Origin: Planctomycetota bacterium
GTDB taxonomy: Bacteria; Planctomycetota; SZUA-567; H5-PLA8
Length of the DNA: 64,000 bases
Assembly: GCA_038227875.1 (NCBI GenBank)
Contig: JBBRPR010000029.1
Location: 36,939-100,938 of the forward strand
Direction: 5' to 3'
Every line of letters begins with the position of its first letter. The stretch's first letter is position 1. Of this stretch, positions 3,296 to 54,561 are shown in pieces. The notes beneath the pieces are model-generated. The model did not search any database. It was not told the DNA's origin and worked only from the letters and a program-made list of their open reading frames with translations. The position numbers were made by a program, and so were the translations under genes.

Positions 3296-5692
3296 CTACA
3301 CCGCGGCGGTGGCTTCTCGCGGCTTGGCCGGCGCAGCGAATGGCGGCAGCACGCCGGCGTTCAACGTGCCCAGCAGCTGCGTATTTTCGAAGTCCAGCGC
3401 CATCCGTGACGTCGATTTCTCGACGATGAATTTCATCTGCGAAACGGAAAGTCCGGTCAGCAGGAAAATGTCCGGTCCCTGCGTCGTGTCGGGATCGTCG
3501 TCCTGGAGTGAGCGGGCCAGCGTCTCGATGACATCGGCATCCGCGTCAGGCGCCAGGACAAAAAGCGCCGCGCTGTTGGCGCGCTTGTCGGCGCGCAACT
3601 TGGCGAAGGCGCTTTTCATTTCCTCTTCCAGCTTCTCGTAGGCAATCGCGTAGTCCGGCGTGCAGACGATGTTGTTCTGCTTGAATTTCGCCGGCCGCAG
3701 TGACATTTCCAGCAGGACCGACTTGATCGTCGCGGCCGTGCGCGGCCAGCTGAATTTCGCCGCCTGCACCAGGCCCGCGGTAATCATGCGCGTCCGGACT
3801 TCCGGCTTCTGAACTTTATCAATCGCTTTGATCACTTCGTCCGGATCGTCGCCGCCGATGTAGATCGGCGCTTCGCCGCCGACTTCGCGCAGCGAACTGT
3901 ACGGACAGCAGATCACCGGACAACCGGCAGCCATGGCTTCAGCCACGGGGAGACCGAAGCCTTCGTATTTCGACGGATACACGCAGGCGACGGCGCCGGA
4001 GTACGCGGCGACCATGTCGTCATCGTCGAGGCGGCGGCGGTGGACCTGCATACCTTCGACGCACGGCACAAACTCCGCCTCCAGCGGATTGGCGGAGCCG
4101 CAGATGACCAATTCGTAGTCTGTGCGGTTGGGCATTTTGCGCAGCGCTTCAAAGAAGACCGCGCCATTCTTGTAGCCGTGGCGATGGCCAACCCAGATCA
4201 GGTAGGGCTTTTTGATGCCGAACTTCGTCTTGAAGCGTTCGATCTCCTGTTCCGGGCGCGGCGCGAAGTGCGGCGAGACGCCGTTGTGCGCGACGGTGAT
4301 CGTCTTGGGATCGAGATCGGGGAAGAATTTCTTCACGTCCTTGGCCGTGTTATTCGAAACGCAGAGGAACGCCGACGCGTACTTCACGCCTTCGTGCTTT
4401 TCCTTCCACATCGGATCGGTCAAGTCTGCGCCGACCACTTCCGGGATCATGTCATGCATCATGAACACCGTCGGCGTGGTGAGCGGCGTGGTGTAATAGG
4501 TGGAAATGAAGGCCGCCGCATTCTCCTCGTCGCAAATGCGCTGCAGCATCGTGCGGTCGATCGGCAATCGCTTGTAGTCATGCCGCGGTATGGTTCGCGA
4601 GCGGATGCCGGGAATCGTCGGCCCGGTGCCGCCGCGGTTGAGGAACAGAATCGAGCTGCCGAATTCTTCCTTCGCCCAATGTTCCATCAGCGTGCGCCAG
4701 ACGCGCGCGATGCCGGTGTTGTAGTACTGAAAAAATACGCCGTCGACAATGATCGTGCCGGCCACCGGCGGCTGGAATTTGTGCGGCGCCTGCGGCTTGG
4801 GCGGCGCGAAGGACCACTCGCGGCGCATCAGCGGCACGACGCCGAGATTCTGGGCGGTATCGACCATCGTGTCGTCGCGCACCCATGGAAAGAAATCGCA
4901 GAGCATGACCGGGAAGACCGGCTGCGCCAGCAGCACCTTCCAGCGCCCCACCGCGCCGTGATAGGCGTAATATTGTTCCTTGAAGCGCAGCTGATTTTCC
5001 GTCACGTACGCGTAGTGCTGAAAAACCAGTCCGCGCGATTCGGTCTCGTAATGATTGAACGCGTTGGCGGCGACGTCGTGCCACACGCCTTCGCCATTCT
5101 GAGCCATCAGTCGCGGCGGCTCGTGAGCCAGCCAGAGATTGCCGGGACGGTAGCGCCAGGTGCGCAGCCATTCGAAATTCGGATTCTGCGAGTAACAATT
5201 GCGCGTCGAGATGACCAGATTTTCGCCAACGAAATAATCACACCAGTAAAACGCCGCGTTCTTGCTCGGATCGTCGAGGAACATCTGCCGCGCCGCGCTG
5301 AACTGCTCGGCGGTCCAGAGTTCATCGGAATCGATCTGCCAGAGCAGGCATTCGCAGGGAATATTGCCCAGAGGCGCGTTGACCATCTCGCGCTTGCCTT
5401 CCCAGAACTGCCCAGGAGGTTTGCGGTAGATGGAAACATTTCTTGGAAATTCGCGCGCGAGCTGATCGAGGTACTCCGCGGTGCCATCGTTGCTCAAACC
5501 ATTGTTGTGCGAGTCCGCCGGAACGCGCCCGCCACCGCCGACGCTCCACGCCGTATCGTGCTTCAACTCGGCCACGCCTTCAACGACGTGCCAGTGCCAC
5601 GGAAAGTCGAGCTTCTTGAGCACGTCGATGTGATAACGGATGAAAGGCTGACCATTAAGTACGATTGTGAAGAAATGAATGGGAAGATCCAT
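3296..5692 (-). CDS. Multidomain glycosyltransferase: N-terminal GT-A-like domain plus GT4 (group 1) domain
   Basis: YPSKYEGFGLPVAEAMAAGCPVI (GT4 EX7E motif); N-terminal WQIDSDE DxD-type motif. Confidence 0.88.
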   Translation of the reverse strand: MDLPIHFFTIVLNGQPFIRYHIDVLKKLDFPWHWHVVEGVAELKHDTAWSVGGGGRVPADSHNNGLSNDGTAEYLDQLAREFPRNVSIYRKPPGQFWEGKREMVNAPLGNIPCECLLWQIDSDELWTAEQFSAARQMFLDDPSKNAAFYWCDYFVGENLVISTRNCYSQNPNFEWLRTWRYRPGNLWLAHEPPRLMAQNGEGVWHDVAANAFNHYETESRGLVFQHYAYVTENQLRFKEQYYAYHGAVGRWKVLLAQPVFPVMLCDFFPWVRDDTMVDTAQNLGVVPLMRREWSFAPPKPQAPHKFQPPVAGTIIVDGVFFQYYNTGIARVWRTLMEHWAKEEFGSSILFLNRGGTGPTIPGIRSRTIPRHDYKRLPIDRTMLQRICDEENAAAFISTYYTTPLTTPTVFMMHDMIPEVVGADLTDPMWKEKHEGVKYASAFLCVSNNTAKDVKKFFPDLDPKTITVAHNGVSPHFAPRPEQEIERFKTKFGIKKPYLIWVGHRHGYKNGAVFFEALRKMPNRTDYELVICGSANPLEAEFVPCVEGMQVHRRRLDDDDMVAAYSGAVACVYPSKYEGFGLPVAEAMAAGCPVICCPYSSLREVGGEAPIYIGGDDPDEVIKAIDKVQKPEVRTRMITAGLVQAAKFSWPRTAATIKSVLLEMSLRPAKFKQNNIVCTPDYAIAYEKLEEEMKSAFAKLRADKRANSAALFVLAPDADADVIETLARSLQDDDPDTTQGPDIFLLTGLSVSQMKFIVEKSTSRMALDFENTQLLGTLNAGVLPPFAAPAKPREATAAV

Positions 5693-44252: not shown

Positions 44253-45773
44253 TTATTTCAACGCGGTAGCGTGAGCTTTCAGATCGGTCACTGCCGGGCC
44301 GTTGATCACCTTGCCCTTGGCGTCGAACCGTGAACCATGGCACGGGCAATCCCAGGTTTTCTCGGCGCTATTGAAGTGAACCACGCAGCCCATGTGCGGA
44401 CAGATCGCCGAGAGCGTATGAAGCGTGCCGTCCTCGTCGCGGTAAACGGCGCACTTGTCGCCATCGCAGGTGACGATTTTGCCTTCATCCGTATGGACTT
44501 CATCCGTGGATTTGGCTTCCGCTCCGCTCAGATTGTCTTTGATGAAAGCCGTGACCACGCAGGCGTTCTCGGTGACGAACTTGGCCGCGGAGGCCAATGG
44601 GTGAATGCGCGTAGCCGTGTAAAGTTTGTGCCATTCATTTTCCACGCCGCCAATCTCATCGAGTAAGAGCATGCCGGCGAGCGTGCCGAAGGTCAGGCCG
44701 TTTCCAGAAAAGCCAGTTGCCACATAAGTATTCTTCGACATTGAATTGCGCCCGATGTACGGGAGGCCGTCGGCCGGTTCGATGATCTGCCCCGACCAGC
44801 GGTAAAGAACATCCGAGATGCCCAGTCGTTCGCGCGCGTAACCTTCCAGCTTCTCAAAGCACGCGTTCGTATCGCTCTTCGTGCCGGTTTTGTGATCCTC
44901 GCCGCCGACGATGACGCAGTCGCCGCCGTTCTGATCCTTGCACGTCCGGATGTAGTGGTACGGATTGGCATTGTCCCAGAACAGCGCGCGTGTCAGGGGG
45001 CGGGGTATTTTCGCCGCGATGGCGTACGACCGATACGCTGCCACTTTCGTGTGGAGCATGATCCAATTGTTTACCGGGGTGTTGGCGGCCACTATTACGT
45101 TTTGCGCGGTGACGCGATGGCCGTCATCAGTGCTGACGACGCATGGAGTACCGTCTTTGACTTCCGAGACACGCGTGTGCTCAAACACTGAACATCCCGG
45201 CGCTTTGCTGAGAATTGTCGCAAGCTGCGCGACGTAGTTGTATGGCTGGAACTGAGCCTGTCCGGCAATCTTGAGTGCCTTAAGCGTGGGGAAGGGTAGG
45301 GGCGCGTCGTTTATCAGCGAGACGTCAGCGCCGAGCGTTTGAAGCGCTTCGGCCTCACTCTTGATATCCGCGACGCCGTCGAGATTGTCCGTGAACAAGT
45401 ACCCGTCGACCCGCGCGAAGCCGCAGTGCGTGAGATGGTACTCAGAGATCAGAAACTCGATCATGTCAATGGCCGCACGGGTCGAATGGCGTGCTGCCTT
45501 CGCGCCATCGAGACCGAAGTCGGAAATCAGTTTGTGGTAGCGGGTGTCCAGGATCTCAGTCAAGTGAGCCGTGGAATGACCGGTCTCGCCTCCGCCCACC
45601 TGTTCGTGTTCCAGAACGGCAACCGTCTTTCCTGCGCGCATCAAGAGGATGCCGGCGGTAATTCCCGCAATTCCGCCACCGACGATGGCGACATCAACGG
45701 TCGGGCTCTTGGTCAGGTTGGGAAAGGTGGGGTGATCACATCGTTCGCCCAGCCACATGGATTGAGTATTCAT
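44253..45773 (-). CDS. FAD-dependent oxidoreductase with C-terminal Rieske [2Fe-2S] domain (YhfW-like)
   Basis: IVGGGIAGI, GGEDHKTG, DGLPYIG, CPHMGC...WDCPCHGSRF. Confidence 0.93.
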   Translation of the reverse strand: MNTQSMWLGERCDHPTFPNLTKSPTVDVAIVGGGIAGITAGILLMRAGKTVAVLEHEQVGGGETGHSTAHLTEILDTRYHKLISDFGLDGAKAARHSTRAAIDMIEFLISEYHLTHCGFARVDGYLFTDNLDGVADIKSEAEALQTLGADVSLINDAPLPFPTLKALKIAGQAQFQPYNYVAQLATILSKAPGCSVFEHTRVSEVKDGTPCVVSTDDGHRVTAQNVIVAANTPVNNWIMLHTKVAAYRSYAIAAKIPRPLTRALFWDNANPYHYIRTCKDQNGGDCVIVGGEDHKTGTKSDTNACFEKLEGYARERLGISDVLYRWSGQIIEPADGLPYIGRNSMSKNTYVATGFSGNGLTFGTLAGMLLLDEIGGVENEWHKLYTATRIHPLASAAKFVTENACVVTAFIKDNLSGAEAKSTDEVHTDEGKIVTCDGDKCAVYRDEDGTLHTLSAICPHMGCVVHFNSAEKTWDCPCHGSRFDAKGKVINGPAVTDLKAHATALK

Positions 45774-46005
45774 AACGCCCTCTTCGTTCGCGAGTAAGTT
45801 CCAACACCGGCACTTTCGGAGTATTCGCGAAAGTCGCTCCAGTTCAGCTTCAAGCGAAATGATTTTTAGAATATGTCGTCGCGATGAAATTAAAGTCGAA
45901 GCAACCATACGATGTGCATGTCAGTTTTGATCTGCCCCCAACCGATTTTCGGAATTCTTCAGATCTGGCCAGGATTTGACTATAGCGAGAACTTGCACTT
46001 ATGGC

Positions 46006-47460: not shown

Positions 47461-47608
47461 TATCCGCACTTATATATATATCTTCAAAAACGACGGCGAA
47501 GTGCGCCGCCGTTTGCGCATGAATACAGTTGGAGTCGCAGACATTATTGCATTGGCTATTAGGCCAATGAAATCTGTGCTTCAAATGTTTAGTTAAGGAG
47601 TATTAGCG

Positions 47609-48004
47609 ATGAAAAAGCCAAATAGAAAGCATGGTCTCCGAGAAAAAGAGGCCAATGAAACTGGCAACGATCGATTAAATCCTGCCGTGGTTCCCGTGGT
47701 TCCAGGTGTGCTCACCACAGGATCGACTCCGGCGGATCTTAACGCGGATTTTGTTTCGTCGTCCGCGCCACTGGCTGAAAAGCCACCGGCGCCTCCCTCA
47801 AAATCGGTCGCGTCAGAGACTGATGATGAAGAGCTGCAGCAAGAAGGTGAACCGGGCGACGAAAGGACGGAATACTTTAATCCCTCCAGCCCACTGAACG
47901 AGAAGCCCAAAAAATCCGCTGCTGTCACATCCCGGTCTCAACCGGCGAATCGCAGGAATGACAATTCGTCGAAGAAATCTGACCAGAACGCCCGTCGGCC
48001 TTAG
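47609..48004 (+). CDS. Hydrophilic, probably disordered hypothetical protein
   Basis: AAGGAG RBS; low-complexity charged/Pro/Ser sequence; ends at a terminator. Confidence 0.55.
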   Translation: MKKPNRKHGLREKEANETGNDRLNPAVVPVVPGVLTTGSTPADLNADFVSSSAPLAEKPPAPPSKSVASETDDEELQQEGEPGDERTEYFNPSSPLNEKPKKSAAVTSRSQPANRRNDNSSKKSDQNARRP

Positions 48005-48040
48005 TAGAAGAACGTAGACTGTTCCAAGTTCAGAAAACGA

Positions 48041-48074
48041 AACGGGGAGAACTTCTTGCGAAGTTCTCCCCGTT
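48041..48074. terminator. Bidirectional intrinsic terminator
   Basis: AACGGGGAGAACTTC-TTGC-GAAGTTCTCCCCGTT. Confidence 0.8.
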
Positions 48075-48093
48075 CAACTTTGAGAATCGTTGC

Positions 48094-48363
48094 TTACTTC
48101 CGGGACGACAGGAACATTCCCAGCAGCACGCCAACGCCCGCCGCGATCAGGATCGACTTGAACGGCTGGTCGCGCACATACTGCTCGACGTTGTCTTGGA
48201 GCTGCTCGGCGTGCTTGGAACCCTTCTCATACAGATCCGCCGCGCTTTCGCGAAGCTGGTCGGCCTTTTCCGTGGCCTTATCGACGGCGCGATGGCCCAT
48301 TTCATTCGCGTTTTTGGTCAATTCTGCGGCGCGCGAGTTCACCTTGTCTGTAGCGATATCCAT
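48094..48363 (-). CDS. ElaB/YqjD (DUF883) family protein
   Basis: VEQYVRDQPFKSILIAAGVGVLLGMFLSSRK; GGAGGAG RBS. Confidence 0.88.
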   Translation of the reverse strand: MDIATDKVNSRAAELTKNANEMGHRAVDKATEKADQLRESAADLYEKGSKHAEQLQDNVEQYVRDQPFKSILIAAGVGVLLGMFLSSRK

Positions 48364-48422
48364 TTTTAGATCTCCTCCATGATGAGACGGCCACCGATTG
48401 CGACCGTTAACTTTTGAAACTC

Positions 48423-48438
48423 TGCAATGACCGTGCCG
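48423..48438 (-). promoter_or_regulatory. Putative sigma54 promoter
   Basis: Minus strand CGGCACG-GTCA-TTGCA, 60 nt upstream of the DUF883 start. Confidence 0.6.
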
Positions 48439-48558
48439 AACTCCAATTATTCCCAGGGAAGCGTATTTAAGGTGCAAATCACCTTGAATAATTGAGGCAT
48501 GAGCTTTGCATCTTCGCTTTTCACGCGGCGAAAATGGGTGTCGCGATACGCGAGGAAT

Positions 48559-50427
48559 ATGATGGAACGCCTTCCGGAACAGCACACTTCAAGACTCACA
48601 ACGCTGGTTACCATCGCTATTGCAGTACTGGGCCTCTACGCCGGTCATGAGGTACTGGTTCCGCTCGCGCTGGCGGTGCTTTTCAGCTTTCTGCTGGCGC
48701 CGATGGTTGTCCGGCTTCAGCGCTTTGTTGGTCGGGTCGCGGCGGTTTTGATTTCTGTGAGCCTTGCGGCGGTCATCCTGGGCTCAGTGGGATTTTTCGT
48801 CGGAAGTCAGCTGCGGGAGGTCGCCGGCAAACTTCCGGAGTACCGTGGCAACATTGAAAAGAAAGTAGTGGTCCTGCGCGGCGTATTCGGTGGCGCCGCA
48901 GAAGCCGTAAAAGATCTCAGCGCGGATTTGTCGGGCGCACCCCCCACTGAAAACGGAAAAACAACGCAGCCCGTGAAAGTCCAGACCGTCGATCAGCCCA
49001 ACAGCATCCAATTTGTGCAGTATCTGCTGGGGCCACTGCTGGGACCGTTGGAAACCACCGGCATCGTCTTCATCTTCGTGATTTTCATGCTGATCGAACG
49101 GGAGGCGCTGCGCGACCGCTTGTTGCGCCTCGTGGGCCAGCACGATCTCAACAAAACCACACAGGCGCTCGACGAGGTCGCCAGCCGCATCAGCCGATAT
49201 CTCGTTCTCCAATTTGTGGTGAACGTCGCTTACGGTCTGGGAATCACGCTGGGACTTTATCTGATCGGCGTACCTAATGCCCCGGTCTGGGGTGCCTTGG
49301 CGGCGTGCATGCGTTTCATTCCGTACATAGGTGCCTGGTTGTCGGCTGTGTTTCCGTTGACGCTCTCCATTGCCACGACGGAGGGCCTGCAGCCGCTCTA
49401 TGTTTTCCTTTTGTATTTGGGATTGGAATTGATCGTTCCGACGTTCATCGAACCGCTCTTGTACGGCGCGAGCACCGGCGTGTCAGCGCTGGCATTGCTC
49501 GTCTCGGCACTCTTCTGGAGTCTCCTTTGGGGTTTGCCGGGACTGTTTCTCTCCATGCCCATAACGGTCTGCCTGATGGTGGTCGGACGCTACGTGCCGC
49601 AATTGAAGTTTTTTGACATTCTCCTGGGCGACAAGCAGGTCCTGGAGACACGTCAGCGCTTTTATCAGCGTCTTCTGGCGATGAACATTGAGGAAGCTTC
49701 CGACGTCGTCGATGAGGAACTGAAAACACATACCCTCATCCAAGTCTTCGATGAAGTGTTCTTGCCGGCATTGGCGCTGGCGGAAATCGACCGGCATCTG
49801 GGCAGACTCGATGACCCTCACGACGTATTCATTCGGGAATCGATCATCGAAATTGCCGAAGACGTGATCGGCCGAGCGGGGCAATCGGGGTCCAACCTGC
49901 AGTTGGGTGTGCCCAGTGTTGCGATTCCGAATCTGGAGTCCATCGTGCTTTGCCTGCCTGCGCGCCATCGTGATGACAACATTGCCGCTGAACTGGCCGC
50001 ACAAATATTGCGCGCGCAAGGTGTGCCGGTACAGGAGGTAACTCCTGTGCTCTCGCCCCGCGATGCCGAATCGCACATCCCAGCCTCCGGCGCGGCGGAC
50101 ATCGTCTGCGTGCTCGCACTGCCCCCGGGCGCGCTGGCCCACGCGCGGTATCTGCATAAACGGATCCATCTCCGGAGTCCGCGCGCGAAGATTGTCGTCT
50201 GCGCGTGGGGCAATAAGCTGGGGAAAATGGAACTGCGCGAACGCCTGCGTTGCGCCCCCGACGATGCCATCGTCACCACGTTTGCCGATTTCTGCGCGGA
50301 GGTCCGGAAACTTCATCCAGAAGGGATCGCGCCGCCAGTGCTATCCGCAGCACCCGTGGAACTTGCGCCGACCGGGTCATCCGACGTGCCGGTGTCCATC
50401 GGATTGGTGCATGAAGTTCTCAAGTAG
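48559..50427 (+). CDS. AI-2E family transporter with C-terminal cytoplasmic extension
   Basis: VPLALAVLFSFLLAP, LRDRLLRL, RFIPYIG, IEPLLYG, WGLPGLFLSMPIT. Confidence 0.9.
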   Translation: MMERLPEQHTSRLTTLVTIAIAVLGLYAGHEVLVPLALAVLFSFLLAPMVVRLQRFVGRVAAVLISVSLAAVILGSVGFFVGSQLREVAGKLPEYRGNIEKKVVVLRGVFGGAAEAVKDLSADLSGAPPTENGKTTQPVKVQTVDQPNSIQFVQYLLGPLLGPLETTGIVFIFVIFMLIEREALRDRLLRLVGQHDLNKTTQALDEVASRISRYLVLQFVVNVAYGLGITLGLYLIGVPNAPVWGALAACMRFIPYIGAWLSAVFPLTLSIATTEGLQPLYVFLLYLGLELIVPTFIEPLLYGASTGVSALALLVSALFWSLLWGLPGLFLSMPITVCLMVVGRYVPQLKFFDILLGDKQVLETRQRFYQRLLAMNIEEASDVVDEELKTHTLIQVFDEVFLPALALAEIDRHLGRLDDPHDVFIRESIIEIAEDVIGRAGQSGSNLQLGVPSVAIPNLESIVLCLPARHRDDNIAAELAAQILRAQGVPVQEVTPVLSPRDAESHIPASGAADIVCVLALPPGALAHARYLHKRIHLRSPRAKIVVCAWGNKLGKMELRERLRCAPDDAIVTTFADFCAEVRKLHPEGIAPPVLSAAPVELAPTGSSDVPVSIGLVHEVLK

Positions 50428-50515
50428 GTCTGCGATGGTGGTTGCCATTGGCGCGCATCAAAGCTAAGTTCTCACGAGTGTAAGGATCGTCAGACCTGAG
50501 TTGAGGTGAGGCCGC

Positions 50516-51529
50516 ATGGAACTCGACATCGAGCAGCCCGAAGCGCTGGACCGCTGGTTGCACGAAACCGGCCGCGTCGGCCCTTCGGAGAAGTTGACGC
50601 TGCGCAATCTGGCCGGCGGCGTTTCCAACCGCACCGTGATGCTGGAAAGTGACGCGGGCAAAGCGTGGGTGCTGAAGCAGGCGCTGTCGAAATTGCGCGT
50701 TGCCGTCGATTGGTTCAGCGATCCGGCACGTATTGAACGCGAAGCACTGGGCATGCGCTGGCTGGCGAAACTCGCTCCCGAAGGCGCCATCACGGAGCTG
50801 ATTTTCGAGGACCCTGCCCATCATGTGCTAGCGATGGCCGCCGTGCCGCAGCCCCACGAAAATCTGAAGACGATTTATCTGGCCGGACGTACCGATCAGG
50901 ATCTGACGTGGCAATTCGGCGCCCTGCTCGGCACGATCCACCACCGCAGCTCGGACGAGCGCGCCGAACTGTCGCGAGCCTTCGCCGACCTTTCCTTTTT
51001 TGAATCGCTGCGCGTCGAGCCGTACTACAGTTACACGGCGGAGCAGGTCCCCGGTTCGGCGGCATTCATCCGTGCCTTGATTGCAGACATGCACGGCTGC
51101 CAATTGGCCCTCGTCCACGGCGACTATAGCCCCAAGAATGTCCTCGTCTACGAAGGCCATCTTGTGCTGCTTGATCACGAAGTGATCCACTTCGGCGACC
51201 CGGCGTTCGACGTGGGCTTCGCGCTCGCGCATCTCTTGAGCAAAGCGCATCACCTCCGCGCACACCGCAAGAATTTCGCTTCGGCCGCGCAAACATTCTG
51301 GACCGCCTATCGTGAAGCGCTGAGCCGCGTGCCCTGGGCCGATGAAATCGCCGGCCGCTGCGCCCGTCACACGCTCGCGTGCCTGCTCGCTCGCGTGAAA
51401 GGTCGTTCGACGCTCGAATACCTGACCGAGCCCGATCGCGCCGCACAAGCGAAAGCCGTCGTCGAGCTGATGAAGGCCGCGCCACCCAGCCCGGACGCAC
51501 TCATCCCCGCCTTCATTTCCAAACTTTAA
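50516..51529 (+). CDS. Aminoglycoside-phosphotransferase/methylthioribose-kinase-like small-molecule kinase
   Basis: LAGGVSN, VLKQAL, LVHGDYSPKN, LDHE..FGDPAFD. Confidence 0.88.
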   Translation: MELDIEQPEALDRWLHETGRVGPSEKLTLRNLAGGVSNRTVMLESDAGKAWVLKQALSKLRVAVDWFSDPARIEREALGMRWLAKLAPEGAITELIFEDPAHHVLAMAAVPQPHENLKTIYLAGRTDQDLTWQFGALLGTIHHRSSDERAELSRAFADLSFFESLRVEPYYSYTAEQVPGSAAFIRALIADMHGCQLALVHGDYSPKNVLVYEGHLVLLDHEVIHFGDPAFDVGFALAHLLSKAHHLRAHRKNFASAAQTFWTAYREALSRVPWADEIAGRCARHTLACLLARVKGRSTLEYLTEPDRAAQAKAVVELMKAAPPSPDALIPAFISKL

Positions 51530-51538
51530 GAATCCGTT

Positions 51539-51562
51539 CTTTGCGACTTAGCGGCTTTGCGT
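51539..51562. repeat. Octamer tandem repeat CTTWGCGN x3
   Basis: CTTTGCGA CTTAGCGG CTTTGCGT in the intergenic gap. Confidence 0.55.
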
Positions 51563-51596
51563 GAGAATAGAACCTGTAGCCCGAACCGGAGAACCA

Positions 51597-52871
51597 ATGC
51601 CCACGATCAAACGTCTGCATGCCATTGAGATCCTCGACAGCCGCGGCCGCCCTACCGTTCAGGCCACGTGCGAGCTGGCGGAAGGCATCAGCGCCACCGC
51701 CTCGGTGCCGTCCGGCGCCTCGCGCGGCGCCGCTGAAGCGCTGGAACTTCGCGACTGCGACGCCAGCCGCTACCGCGGGCTGGGTTGCCGCAAGGCCGTG
51801 GAGAACATCAAAACAGCGATCGCGGACACCGTGTGCGGAGTGGCCCTGGACTCCCAGACGCAACTCGACAACATGATGCTCGCGCGCGACGGCACCGTGA
51901 ACAAATCCAATCTCGGCGCCAACGCCATTCTCGCCGTCTCGATCGCTTTCGCGCGGGCGCACGCGGCGCTGTTGAAGCGCCCGCTCTACCAGCACTTCGC
52001 AGCGATGGCCACGCCAGGCGGCACCGCCAGGCAGCTGCCGCGCATGACAATCAACCTGTTCAGCGGCGGCAAGCACGCCGGCGGTCAGGTCGCGATTCAG
52101 GATGTGCTGATCATCCCCGCCGCCGCGACCACGATCGAAGAAGGCCTGGCGACAACGTACGCCGTGTATCAGGCGGCGGCGGAGCTTGGCATGAAGAAGT
52201 ACGGCGCGCGGGCGCTCACCGCCGACGAAGGCGGACTCGCCCCGCCGTTTCCGAACGCACAGACGATGCTCGACGATGCCGTGACCGCGATCGAGAACGC
52301 CGGCTTCAAGCCGGGCAAGGACGTCGTGATCGCCGTCGACGTCGCCAGCAGTCATTTCTACGAGGATGGCAAATACCACCTCGACGGCGCGGTGCTGGAC
52401 GGGAAGGGGATGGTCGACCGCCTGGCCAGCTGGGTGCGCCAGTACCCGATCGTCAGCGTCGAAGACGGTCTGGCGGAAGAAGACTGGGCGCACTGGCCGC
52501 TCCTGCGCGAGGCCATCGGCTCACGCGTGCTGGTGCTTGGCGACGATTTGCTCTGCACGAACGTCGGCCGCATATTGAAGGCGATCGAATTGAAAGCCGC
52601 TAACGCGCTGCTGTTGAAAGTAAATCAAATCGGTTCGCTCAGCGAAGCGCTGCAAGCCGGCCAGCGCGCGCAGGGCGCCGGATGGTCAGTCACGATCAGC
52701 GCCCGCAGCGGTGAGACGGAAGACGACTGGCTGGCGGACCTGGCCGTCGGCTGGTCGGGCACGCAGATCAAGGTCGGCTCCATCGCACACTCGGAGCGCC
52801 TGGCGAAATACAACCGCCTGCTGCAGATCGAAGCGGAGACGAAGTTGCCGGTGGCGAAGTGGCCGGGCTGA
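51597..52871 (+). CDS. eno: Enolase (phosphopyruvate hydratase) family protein, divergent paralog
   Basis: EILDSRGRPTV, PSGAS, GANAILAVS, DEGG, SVEDG, GDDL, LKVNQIG, RSGETED, AKYNRLL; but IQD for IQE and SARS for SHRS. Confidence 0.9.
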   Translation: MPTIKRLHAIEILDSRGRPTVQATCELAEGISATASVPSGASRGAAEALELRDCDASRYRGLGCRKAVENIKTAIADTVCGVALDSQTQLDNMMLARDGTVNKSNLGANAILAVSIAFARAHAALLKRPLYQHFAAMATPGGTARQLPRMTINLFSGGKHAGGQVAIQDVLIIPAAATTIEEGLATTYAVYQAAAELGMKKYGARALTADEGGLAPPFPNAQTMLDDAVTAIENAGFKPGKDVVIAVDVASSHFYEDGKYHLDGAVLDGKGMVDRLASWVRQYPIVSVEDGLAEEDWAHWPLLREAIGSRVLVLGDDLLCTNVGRILKAIELKAANALLLKVNQIGSLSEALQAGQRAQGAGWSVTISARSGETEDDWLADLAVGWSGTQIKVGSIAHSERLAKYNRLLQIEAETKLPVAKWPG

Positions 52872-52887
52872 ACGGATAGTTTTAGTT

Positions 52888-53634
52888 TTACTTCGTCGCC
52901 GATCGTGCCGGTGGGTTGATGAGAAAATCAAGCAGACGAGCGTTTTCGAAAAATTCCGGGACTTCCTTGTGCCCGACGCCAGGGACGACGAGCAATTCGG
53001 CCGTTCCGCCCAGTTCGCGGTAGCGGCGGACAAGTTCCGCGGAATTGTTCTCCAGAGGCACCACGTCATCGGAGTCGCCGTGGATGTGAAATACCGGCAC
53101 ATGCGCCGCGGCCAGGGCGCCTAGTCTTTCAACGGGATTGTGCTTCGATCGTTCCTGGATTATTCGCTCCGTCGGCAATCCGTACGCCTTCGAGATCGTC
53201 TCGAGGCGCGCGGGCCATAGGACATCGCAAACCGGATAGATTCCGGCAATGCTCCGCACACAGTCCGGATGATCAGCAGCCCAATTATAGTGGAACAGGC
53301 CTCCGCGGCTCTGGCCCAGCAGCCGAGCCTTCGCCTCCAGCTTGAACTCGCGTACGACCTGCGCATGGAAACGGGTGTAAAATTCCCGCCCGGCGGGACT
53401 GCCCCACGCCTCGCCCACATCGACGCCGCCGACAGCAATGCCGGCGTCGAGCACGCGGGTCAAGTACCAGGCATGCAGCGGCTTGGGAAGCGGATACGGA
53501 TTGCTGATAAATGAGGGCGCGTACCACAACCAGGGATTCCCCGGAGCTGGAATCGCCGGCAGGATCATGAACCCGCCGAAGGATCCGGGGACTTCGAAAT
53601 CCAGACGTCTGTGTCCGAAATTGTGCGATGTCAT
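52888..53634 (-). CDS. Alpha/beta hydrolase
   Basis: GQSRGG nucleophile elbow, HGDSDDVVP, GVGH. Confidence 0.85.
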   Translation of the reverse strand: MTSHNFGHRRLDFEVPGSFGGFMILPAIPAPGNPWLWYAPSFISNPYPLPKPLHAWYLTRVLDAGIAVGGVDVGEAWGSPAGREFYTRFHAQVVREFKLEAKARLLGQSRGGLFHYNWAADHPDCVRSIAGIYPVCDVLWPARLETISKAYGLPTERIIQERSKHNPVERLGALAAAHVPVFHIHGDSDDVVPLENNSAELVRRYRELGGTAELLVVPGVGHKEVPEFFENARLLDFLINPPARSATK

Positions 53635-53676
53635 CTGGCGCGCCTCTATAAGCCGGGAGCTACAGAAAGCCAGGGT

Positions 53677-54561
53677 TTACAGAATAATTTCCAGCCCCTC
53701 AAACGCCGCCGACACTTTCAGCCCCGTCTTCAGTCCTTCGCGCCGCGCATCGTTTTCGATGCGCGCGACGGCCCAGTCGTCGTGCAGCGGGTCGTGATGG
53801 GTCAGCATCAAATGTTTGACGTTGGCTTCCAGCGCTTCGGTGATGCCGTGCTTCCACGTGGAATGGCCCCAGCCCTTGCGTGACATGCCGCCGCGGCCGA
53901 GGTACTCGTCTTCCGTGTACTGCCCGTCGTAAAAAAGCACGTCGCCGTTGCGCGCCAGTTTCTGCAGGCGCGGGTTGGTCTTGTTCAGGTGCTCCGTGTC
54001 CGTCGCGTACACGAAGGTCTTTACAGCGCGTTCGGAATGTTCTTCGATGCGGTACCCGAAGCAGCCGCCGGGATGGTTCAGTGCGCCAGAAGTGATCGTC
54101 AGGCGGCTCTCCAAGCCTTCGAGAACGACTGAGGCGCCGTCGTCGATGTCGTTGAAGATCATCTTCGCCGGCATGTCGGAAAGCTGCACGGGAAAGTTCA
54201 AGCCTTCCTGCTGGCCACGCAACGCTCGCTCCAGCACCGAACCCATGAAGCCGGGCGTCTGGTTGATGTTCGGCCCGTAGAGCGTGAAAACATTGCCCGG
54301 CACAAAGCCCGGCACGAAAAACGGGAAGCCCTGGATGTGATCCCAATGCACGTGACTGAAGAAAAACGTCGCCTTCAGCGGCATTTCCCGGGCGAGATTC
54401 AAACCCAGCGTGCGCAAGCCCGAGCCTCCATCGAGAATCACGATCAGCCCCGGCACGCGCACGGAAACACAGGTGGTGTTGCCGCCGTAGCGGCTGGTGA
54501 CAAAATCAGGACTGCTGGGAGTAGGGATGCTTCCGCGAACGCCCCAAAAGTGAATCTTCAA
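53677..54561 (-). CDS. MBL-fold metallohydrolase (phosphodiesterase-like)
   Basis: FWGVRGSIP, YGGNTTC, SHVHWDHIQG, NHPG, TDTE, GWGHS, THHDP. Confidence 0.9.
   Translation of the reverse strand: MKIHFWGVRGSIPTPSSPDFVTSRYGGNTTCVSVRVPGLIVILDGGSGLRTLGLNLAREMPLKATFFFSHVHWDHIQGFPFFVPGFVPGNVFTLYGPNINQTPGFMGSVLERALRGQQEGLNFPVQLSDMPAKMIFNDIDDGASVVLEGLESRLTITSGALNHPGGCFGYRIEEHSERAVKTFVYATDTEHLNKTNPRLQKLARNGDVLFYDGQYTEDEYLGRGGMSRKGWGHSTWKHGITEALEANVKHLMLTHHDPLHDDWAVARIENDARREGLKTGLKVSAAFEGLEIIL

Follow-up and report, generated by a model that had tools for sequence, protein, structure and literature searches.

A small-molecule kinase gene paired with a remodelled enolase paralogue in Planctomycetota and other bacteria

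The kinase gene and the enolase paralogue

The stretch of DNA analysed here, hereafter “the window”, comprises 64,000 nucleotides (nt) of a Planctomycetota genome (assembly GCA_038227875.1, contig JBBRPR010000029.1, positions 36,939 to 100,938) and is numbered from its own first letter. Two open reading frames (ORFs) running in one direction (+ strand) are its subject: a gene for a small-molecule kinase, followed by a gene for an enolase paralogue. The source genome (9.3 Mb, 176 contigs) was 88% complete. The pair consists of the following features:

50516..51529, + strand: small-molecule kinase of the APH family, 337 amino acids (aa); evidence from the ORF call, PF01636, a weak match to TIGR01767, the alignment, an AlphaFold2 model and Foldseek
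51530..51596, + strand: intergenic spacer of 67 nt, from the kinase stop codon to the likely enolase ATG
51597..52871, + strand: enolase-family paralogue, 424 aa; evidence from Pfam, NCBIfam, the alignment and the tree

The longest ORF for the enolase (51561-52871, + strand, 436 aa) begins at an in-frame GTG, which would cut the spacer to 31 nt; the ATG at 51597 is the likely start, because the identical database protein (424 aa) and the N-termini of the homologues begin there. Promoter- and terminator-like sites in a scan of 48200-53800 were no more numerous than in shuffled sequences, and none was located between the kinase and enolase genes.

The kinase matched PF01636 (APH; E 1.7e-13, 51.3 bits against a gathering threshold of 23.2) and no other Pfam family, and thus lacked homology to the PF02595 and MOFRL glycerate kinases. 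Its NCBIfam matches were weak: 5-methylthioribose (MTR) kinase (TIGR01767, 42.4 bits, well below the equivalog cut-off of 275), LxmK (NF038156, E 2.6e-10) and Bud32. The motifs of an active kinase were intact: the ATP-binding Lys of VLKQAL (K54), the catalytic loop HGDYSPKN (D203, N208) and the metal-binding DHE (D220, E222). In an alignment of 37 sequences of the family, the Lys of VxKQAL, the HGD(Y/F)SPKN loop and the D-H-E metal site were invariant, as were many Arg and Lys residues, which would suit an anionic substrate. The AlphaFold2 model (predicted local distance difference test, pLDDT, 96.3; predicted template modelling score, pTM, 0.93) was closest in Foldseek to plant and Bacillus 5-methylthioribose kinases (2pyw, 2pul and 2olc; template modelling (TM) scores 0.75-0.83, 15-17% identity), the best match being 2pyw (TM 0.83, query-normalised, 15% identity). 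Lower matches included PsiK, the lanthipeptide kinase LxmK (9dk3), choline kinases and antibiotic kinases (macrolide, aminoglycoside, amicoumacin, corramycin), and a search of the ESM Atlas matched only clusters named “phosphotransferase family protein”. The name “MTR-kinase-like”, given to this protein in a first-pass annotation of the window, is therefore upheld at the level of fold: on the predicted structure, the kinase has an MtnK-type fold but falls outside the MtnK equivalog.

The paralogue was a full-length two-domain enolase, with an N-terminal capping domain (Enolase_N, PF03952, residues 16-145, E 2e-46) and a C-terminal TIM barrel (Enolase_C, PF00113, residues 159-426, E 4e-84), aligned end to end with solved enolases (E 6e-108) and scored 443.5-443.6 bits on TIGR01060, above the equivalog cut-off of 300. 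All the motifs quoted in the first-pass annotation were found in the translation, both those reported as kept (VDVASS, SVEDG, GDDL, LKVNQ, DEGG, ARSGE) and those reported as changed (IQD, SARS, SGG, HSER). Eleven residues were invariant in 37/37 members of the paralogue family: S42 (the metal-binding Ser), H160, Q168, E211, D248, E289, D316, K341, R370, S371 and K392. These include the catalytic set of enolase: the metal ligands D248, E289 and D316, the catalytic Lys K341, the Glu of DEGG (E211), the phosphate clamp R370-S371 and the second Lys K392. The residues that differ from canonical enolases were, in the 424-aa numbering, S156 (canonical Asn), D169 (Glu), L171 (Met), H253 (Glu), A369 (His) and H398 (Arg).

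Seventy-nine paralogues and 17 enolase domains of fusion proteins were compared with 21 canonical enolases of the same genomes. The position of the Q-E motif was Asp in 79/79 paralogues and 17/17 fusions but Glu in 21/21 canonical enolases; the His of SHRSGE was replaced by Ala in 75/79 paralogues and 16/17 fusions (His in 21/21 canonical); and the Asn corresponding to S156 was Ser in 79/79 and 16/17 (Asn in 21/21 canonical). Two further changes had escaped the first-pass annotation: two residues past the Asp, Leu was present in 78/79 paralogues and 17/17 fusions (Met in 21/21 canonical), and five residues past the first metal-ligand Asp, His was present in 69/79 and 15/17 (Glu in 20/21 canonical). 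The change of RSER to HSER or QSER held in the unfused clade and not family-wide, most fused members keeping RSER. Among the 120 closest database homologues (66-100% identical), SA-RSGE was present in all 120 and x-Q-D was matched in 110, the other 10 having missed the regular expression with no difference demonstrated. Such uniformity is well beyond chance: the signature of the remodelled enolase is fixed, and its changes are not due to drift or decay.

The changed Glu and His, which we take to be Glu168 and His373 of the yeast enzyme, and the residues altered with them would sit where canonical enolases contact the C3 hydroxyl, facing the C3 side of the pocket. Mapped by motif position, the same two residues would be equivalent to Glu167 and His371 of human ENO2, which hydrogen-bond the 5'-hydroxyl of the inhibitor SF2312 as reported in PMC6651268. 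According to the core claim of the first-pass annotation, the smaller side chains leave space for a longer 2-phospho sugar acid substituted at C3; this is compatible with their position, and the pocket may be enlarged in this way.

The position of the changes also bears on a different chemistry, by analogy with LxmK and LxmY, in which the kinase would phosphorylate the 3-hydroxyl (beta) of an acid with an anionic group at C2 and the paralogue would expel phosphate instead of hydroxide. LxmK appeared among both the weak family matches and the fold matches of the kinase, the remodelled residues face the leaving-group side, and the new His there could bind phosphate. The Arg-Ser clamp and the second-metal Ser of the 2-phosphate site were nevertheless invariant, so that the substrate would need two phosphates, while no second kinase was conserved nearby, either in 80 related loci or in the 7 related loci from Planctomycetota. 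We know of no precedent for phosphate elimination in the enolase family, and this chemistry is improbable.

The source genome also encoded a canonical enolase, an outcome in favour of the first-pass proposal, which a sole enolase would have spoken against. It was located on another contig, scored 707.5 bits on TIGR01060 (443.6 for the paralogue) and carried QEF, SHRSGE, NGG and RTDR. The paralogue was only 41% identical to it, and about 260 bits lower on TIGR01060, but 60-69% identical to its relatives in other phyla. In 40 carrier genomes, an enolase of the paralogue type was present in 40/40 (403-455 bits on TIGR01060) and a full canonical enolase (at least 630 bits) in 36/40; the other 4 had partial or split canonical copies in fragmented assemblies, and no case of the paralogue as sole enolase was found among the 40. 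The paralogue is not the glycolytic enolase of the cell. In a FastTree phylogeny, the 79 paralogues and the 17 fusion domains formed one clade (Shimodaira-Hasegawa-like support 100) with the 21 canonical enolases outside it, and the fusion domains branched mostly at the base of the paralogue family. As anticipated from the sequence of the window, the protein is annotated as a plain enolase: the source names are “enolase” and “phosphopyruvate hydratase”, and the NCBIfam equivalog cut-off is passed. Since the paralogue departs from canonical enolases at two otherwise invariant residues and does not serve as sole enolase, the phosphopyruvate hydratase equivalog is not the right place for it.

Linkage, fusion and co-occurrence of the two genes

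Related loci (designated L) were surveyed as the best 80 of 388 relatives on contigs of one genome per species; most of them come from metagenome-assembled genomes, and genomes that are related cannot be tallied as independent cases, which lessens the weight of the figures below as support for a common function. The kinase orthologue (44-62% identical) lay immediately upstream of the paralogue, on the same strand, in 57/80 loci; 7 of the 23 unlinked loci had less than 310 nt of upstream sequence, which gives 57 linked loci among 73 assessable. The loci span genomes of Chloroflexota, Planctomycetota, Verrucomicrobiota, Truepera, Rubrobacter, Cyclobacteriaceae, Desulfobulbia-type bacteria and Myxococcales. 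In 8 of 14 genomes without adjacency, the kinase was encoded elsewhere (54-61% identity).

In a sample of Actinomycetota, a member of the kinase family was present in 32/401 genomes, and an enolase was encoded directly downstream of it in 27 of the 30 loci returned. SARSGE or SGRSGE was read in 17 of these 27 enolases, the other 10 having the motif region off the locus or the pattern unmatched. In the extended actinomycetotal loci, the pair was present in 20/20, often with overlapping stop and start codons, and identity to the window proteins was 31-40% for the kinase and 42-48% for the enolase. In one actinobacterial locus (L163, 9347-10006 and 10147-10614, + strand), the enolase paralogue that follows the kinase was split into two ORFs, reflecting either a frameshift/pseudogene or an assembly error.

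Presence and absence were scored in 301 genomes of the phylum of the window. The kinase was detected in 16 and the paralogue in 11 (E<=1e-150, a threshold chosen once the same model had been seen to separate canonical enolases, at 406-480 bits, from unfused paralogues, at 687-787 bits). Every one of the 11 also had the kinase, and the paralogue was not detected in any of the 285 kinase-negative genomes; its distribution was sporadic (11/301). As the genomes of this sample are related, these figures are to be read as counts and not as probabilities. Of the 5 other kinase-positive genomes, 4 had a divergent SARSGE enolase adjoining the kinase, and one (G685) had none within 3.5 kb. The pairwise distances of the two proteins were correlated (r 0.73), a value reached in 0/2000 permutations.

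At least 16 proteins contained full-length kinase and enolase domains, 15 in the order kinase-enolase and 1 in the order enolase-kinase, and all carried the signature. A dehydrogenase-enolase fusion was also considered for one protein (P0195, 775 aa) and rejected: its dehydrogenase part aligned only to residue 222 and was followed by Arg-rich sequence before the enolase domain. A frameshift or an error of gene calling has probably merged two neighbouring genes here, and the protein counts as adjacency only. In three loci, a gene was inserted between kinase and enolase (L010, 1311-2081; L026, 5295-5936; L028, 5091-5897), encoding a S-adenosylmethionine (SAM)-methyltransferase in two Chloroflexota loci and a metallophosphoesterase in one; they may add steps to the pathway or have been inserted there by chance.

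Linkage to the kinase, on which the first-pass annotation had built its proposal, was thus maintained in different phyla, in fusion proteins and in the pattern of presence and absence, an outcome that again favours the proposal. A class I glycerate kinase was encoded in the source genome, and a classical glycerate kinase (PF02595 or MOFRL) was present in 38/40 carriers, which rules out the idea that the kinase is a non-orthologous displacement of that enzyme. The remodelled pair is co-inherited and sometimes fused, and its carriers nearly always have a canonical enolase and a classical glycerate kinase besides.

Genomic neighbours and the putative substrate

The genes that flank the pair in the window are the following:

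48499-50427, + strand: AI-2E-family transporter homologue, 642 aa, immediately before the kinase gene; Pfam match limited to residues 35-360
52888-53634, convergent with the pair: alpha/beta hydrolase gene, the next gene after the enolase paralogue

These neighbours, together with a metallo-beta-lactamase (MBL)-fold protein, did not recur in the 7 related Planctomycetota loci. About 280 C-terminal residues of the transporter homologue lie outside its Pfam match. Further upstream, an ORF of 551 aa (44253-45908, - strand) showed, on reading the translation by eye, an N-terminal GxGxxG dinucleotide-binding motif and a C-terminal Rieske-like pair, CPHMGC...CPCHGSRF.

When 2884 ORFs from the 80 loci were clustered, only a dehydrogenase (12 loci) and short-chain dehydrogenases/reductases (SDRs; 9 loci) recurred above the level of lineage. 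The only widely recurrent extra partner was a D-isomer-specific 2-hydroxyacid dehydrogenase, encoded upstream of the kinase (L005, L014, L021, L030, L067), directly upstream of the enolase where the kinase was missing (L041, L048, L052, L061), overlapping the start of an unlinked kinase (L087, L088), or downstream of the enolase with a GntR/FCD regulator in an actinobacterium (L151). Its nearest solved relatives were an archaeal phosphoglycerate dehydrogenase and glyoxylate/hydroxypyruvate reductases, and its best match in the source genome had 37-39% identity. Other neighbours were found in smaller numbers: clusters of FAH-family hydrolase, MR/MLE dehydratase, and SDR or zinc-dependent alcohol dehydrogenase genes around the pair in Truepera (L018) and Dictyobacter (L035); IlvD/Edd dehydratases (L026, L065, L075, L165, L166); AP_endonuc_2 barrels resembling hydroxypyruvate isomerase (L016, L063, L155); a GarL-like HpcH aldolase with an Ldh_2 dehydrogenase (L152); a sugar transporter of the major facilitator superfamily (MFS; L043); and a beta-hydroxyacid dehydrogenase (L083). 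Judged by their family assignments, these genes point to sugar-acid catabolism. In L010, a gene for a DUF1537 kinase (SBD_N/NBD_C) was located downstream with an aminotransferase gene; this family is presumably linked to four-carbon acid sugars, and by that analogy the gene is the only direct hint of C4 acids.

Two further arrangements were lineage-specific. In three Desulfobulbia-type loci (L057, L060, L062; about 4150-4925, + strand), the kinase gene was immediately preceded by a YaaA peroxide stress gene of the same strand. In six loci (L014, L019, L020, L022, L024, L027), a convergent MFS gene and then CrcB fluoride channel, BacA and LysM genes followed the paralogue; these represent a related Phototrophicaceae-type group and one Anaerolineaceae locus.

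The CrcB genes call for consideration of a resistance cassette, in which the paralogue would be a spare copy that resists a natural enolase poison, either fluoride or an SF2312-like phosphonate, and the APH-type kinase would inactivate an antibiotic. Besides the channel gene past the convergent MFS gene in these six loci, this is suggested by the APH fold, common among antibiotic kinases, and by the two changed residues, whose equivalents bind the SF2312 5'-hydroxyl in human ENO2 (PMC6651268). The CrcB adjacency was, however, confined to one lineage and close relatives, the best structural match of the kinase was a sugar kinase and not a drug kinase, and the neighbours were catabolic enzymes and not biosynthetic clusters; a drug kinase fused to a resistant target in both orders would also make little sense. 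No fluoride or other riboswitch was found by Rfam in the window (no match at E<=1 in 47500-54000) or in 11 loci (no match at gathering scores), including four of the six CrcB loci (L014, L019, L020, L022), and the idea of a fluoride riboswitch was dropped. A resistance cassette is very improbable.

The reading preferred here, to which we give about even confidence, is that the kinase and the enolase paralogue form one metabolic module apart from glycolysis, acting on a 2,3-dihydroxy acid other than D-glycerate. The pairing points to an undescribed two-step route from a sugar-derived hydroxy acid to a phosphoenol compound. In the first step, the MTR-kinase-like enzyme would transfer phosphate from ATP to the 2-hydroxyl of a free 2,3-dihydroxy-carboxylic acid derived from sugar-acid breakdown; in some lineages, the adjacent D-2-hydroxyacid dehydrogenase might form this acid from a 2-oxo acid. 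The kinase is the evident candidate for providing the enolase with its 2-phospho acid, by phosphorylation at the predicted 2-position. In the second step, to judge from the retained residues, the paralogue would bind the 2-phospho acid through the two-metal site, the Arg-Ser phosphate clamp and the Lys/Gln carboxylate contacts; the conserved Lys would take the C2 proton and the Glu of DEGG would expel the C3 hydroxyl, most likely the same chemistry as in canonical enolase. The product, a phosphoenol-2-oxo acid, would enter central metabolism. Candidate substrates are a C4 acid (erythronate, threonate or 2,3-dihydroxybutanoate) or another C3-substituted glycerate. The family-wide changes (Glu to Asp, His to Ala, a new His, Asn to Ser and Met to Leu) face C3, and the preferred substrate would for this reason not be ordinary 2-phospho-D-glycerate.

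The strongest competing explanation is a plain glycerate bypass, in which the kinase would be a fourth, non-homologous type of D-glycerate 2-kinase and the paralogue the 2-phosphoglycerate enolase dedicated to it, ordinary except perhaps for tuned kinetics; hydroxypyruvate, tartronate semialdehyde or the cleavage of sugar acids would yield D-glycerate, which the two enzymes would convert directly to phosphoenolpyruvate (PEP). The dehydrogenase is part of the case for it, being present in 12/80 loci, beside an unlinked kinase and in Actinomycetota, with phosphoglycerate dehydrogenase and glyoxylate/hydroxypyruvate reductases as nearest solved relatives; so are the AP_endonuc_2 barrels, the HpcH aldolase and the beta-hydroxyacid dehydrogenase, the retention of all but two of the residues needed for the enolase reaction, and the score of the paralogue above the TIGR01060 cut-off. 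The canonical enolase of the carriers, however, already handles 2-phosphoglycerate, which is a central metabolite, and a dedicated or fused second enolase with a fixed signature would be redundant; the same applies to a further glycerate kinase in the source genome and in the 38/40 carriers that have a classical one, and the paralogue was never the sole enolase in the 40 carriers. Because a canonical enolase and a glycerate kinase are present, and because both the pairing and the signature have survived repeated fusion and a divergence to about 31% identity in the kinase and 42% in the enolase, a non-glycerate acid is favoured over glycerate-to-PEP conversion, and we regard the glycerate bypass as unlikely, though deserving of serious weight.

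Several observations speak against a module for a non-glycerate acid. The genomic context is thin: most loci had no conserved partner beyond the kinase-enolase pair, and an orthologue of the dehydrogenase was present in only 13/40 carriers and lineage-restricted. The dehydrogenase, the hydroxypyruvate-isomerase-like barrels and the sugar-acid dehydratases suit a C3 glycerate node no less than they suit a tetronate or pentonate; the frequent neighbours (dehydrogenase, isomerase-like barrels and GarL-like aldolase) are classic glycerate-node enzymes, and their presence favours D-glycerate. The His373Asn mutant of yeast enolase is reported to keep part of its activity, and Asp for Glu together with Ala for His might still allow turnover of 2-phosphoglycerate. 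In addition, the kinase was not found with the window query in 6 of the 14 genomes lacking adjacency, and in 4 of these 6 the D-2-hydroxyacid dehydrogenase adjoined the enolase paralogue instead, so that the enolase can apparently work without the kinase.

Comparison with known systems

A single function is credited to the enolase family, and automatic pipelines call each of its proteins “phosphopyruvate hydratase”; in SFLD, one family only, enolase, is placed under the enolase subgroup (PMC5467563). A kinase-locked enolase subfamily would mean that the annotation of hundreds of environmental genomes (Planctomycetota, Chloroflexota, Verrucomicrobiota, Actinomycetota and others) is systematically wrong; it would also mean a missing final step of sugar-acid catabolism in abundant soil and water heterotrophs, and a natural experiment on the residues of substrate choice in one of the best-studied enzymes. 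Searches of full-text literature, subscription literature being outside their coverage, returned no description of a kinase-coupled enolase paralogue.

The closest relative of the kinase by structure is 5-methylthioribose kinase, MtnK (TIGR01767; PDB 2pyw, 2olc), with which it shares the KQAL..R, HGD....N and D-x-E motifs. The kinase described here is about 60-80 residues shorter, is only 15-17% identical, and has an enolase as its partner instead of methionine-salvage genes; no mtn genes were seen among the neighbours scanned around the pair loci, though no search aimed at them was made. The classical glycerate kinases (class I, PF02595, GlxK/GarK; class II, MOFRL) would occupy the same place in a pathway, after hydroxypyruvate/tartronate-semialdehyde reductases and sugar-acid aldolases, but they are not homologous to this kinase and co-exist with the pair in 38/40 carriers. 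Some of them form 2-phosphoglycerate, and to our knowledge they need no dedicated enolase.

Canonical enolase (EC 4.2.1.11; PF03952 and PF00113; TIGR01060) has the same architecture, metal ligands, catalytic Lys and Glu, phosphate clamp and carboxylate contacts as the paralogue, which differs from it by the fixed five-residue signature, the separate clade, the tie to a kinase and its occurrence always in addition to a canonical copy. A precedent for the dehydration of a glycerate derivative other than 2-phosphoglycerate is PhpH, an enolase homologue of phosphinothricin biosynthesis. PhpH varies on the phosphate side and belongs to an antibiotic cluster, whereas the paralogue varies on the C3 side and occurs in catabolic contexts.

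In five Caldilineaceae-type genomes, a divergent MOFRL-type (glycerate-2-kinase-like) gene adjoined a third, very divergent enolase-like gene:

L093, 3995-5263 and 5305-6906, - strand: pair formed by a divergent enolase-like gene and a MOFRL-type gene; the same pair also in G011:C20, G021:C24, G037:C18 and G040:C41

The divergent protein scored 304-316 bits on TIGR01060, with SHRSGE changed to CDSRGEG and QIKTG to GHLREG. As in the pair of the window, a gene for a hydroxy-acid-type kinase is located beside an enolase-family gene, and the same genomes also carry a SARS-type enolase; the kinase family differs, however, and that enolase lacks the SHRSGE and QIKTG motifs. It is a second, independent pairing of a kinase gene with an enolase-like gene.

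A bolder reading, which is tentative and to which we give somewhat less than even confidence, is that the paralogue would be the first enzyme of the enolase subgroup with a physiological substrate other than 2-phosphoglycerate, and that together with a new MtnK-fold hydroxy-acid 2-kinase it would form a widespread “phosphorylate and dehydrate” route from C4 or C3-substituted 2,3-dihydroxy acids to a PEP analogue, of which the Caldilineaceae MOFRL pair would be a second instance. If so, the PEP analogue would be an energy-rich intermediate off current metabolic maps. With regard to the systems compared above, the folds are known and the chemistry is probably known, and what is new would be the widespread, mis-annotated pairing of kinase and enolase.

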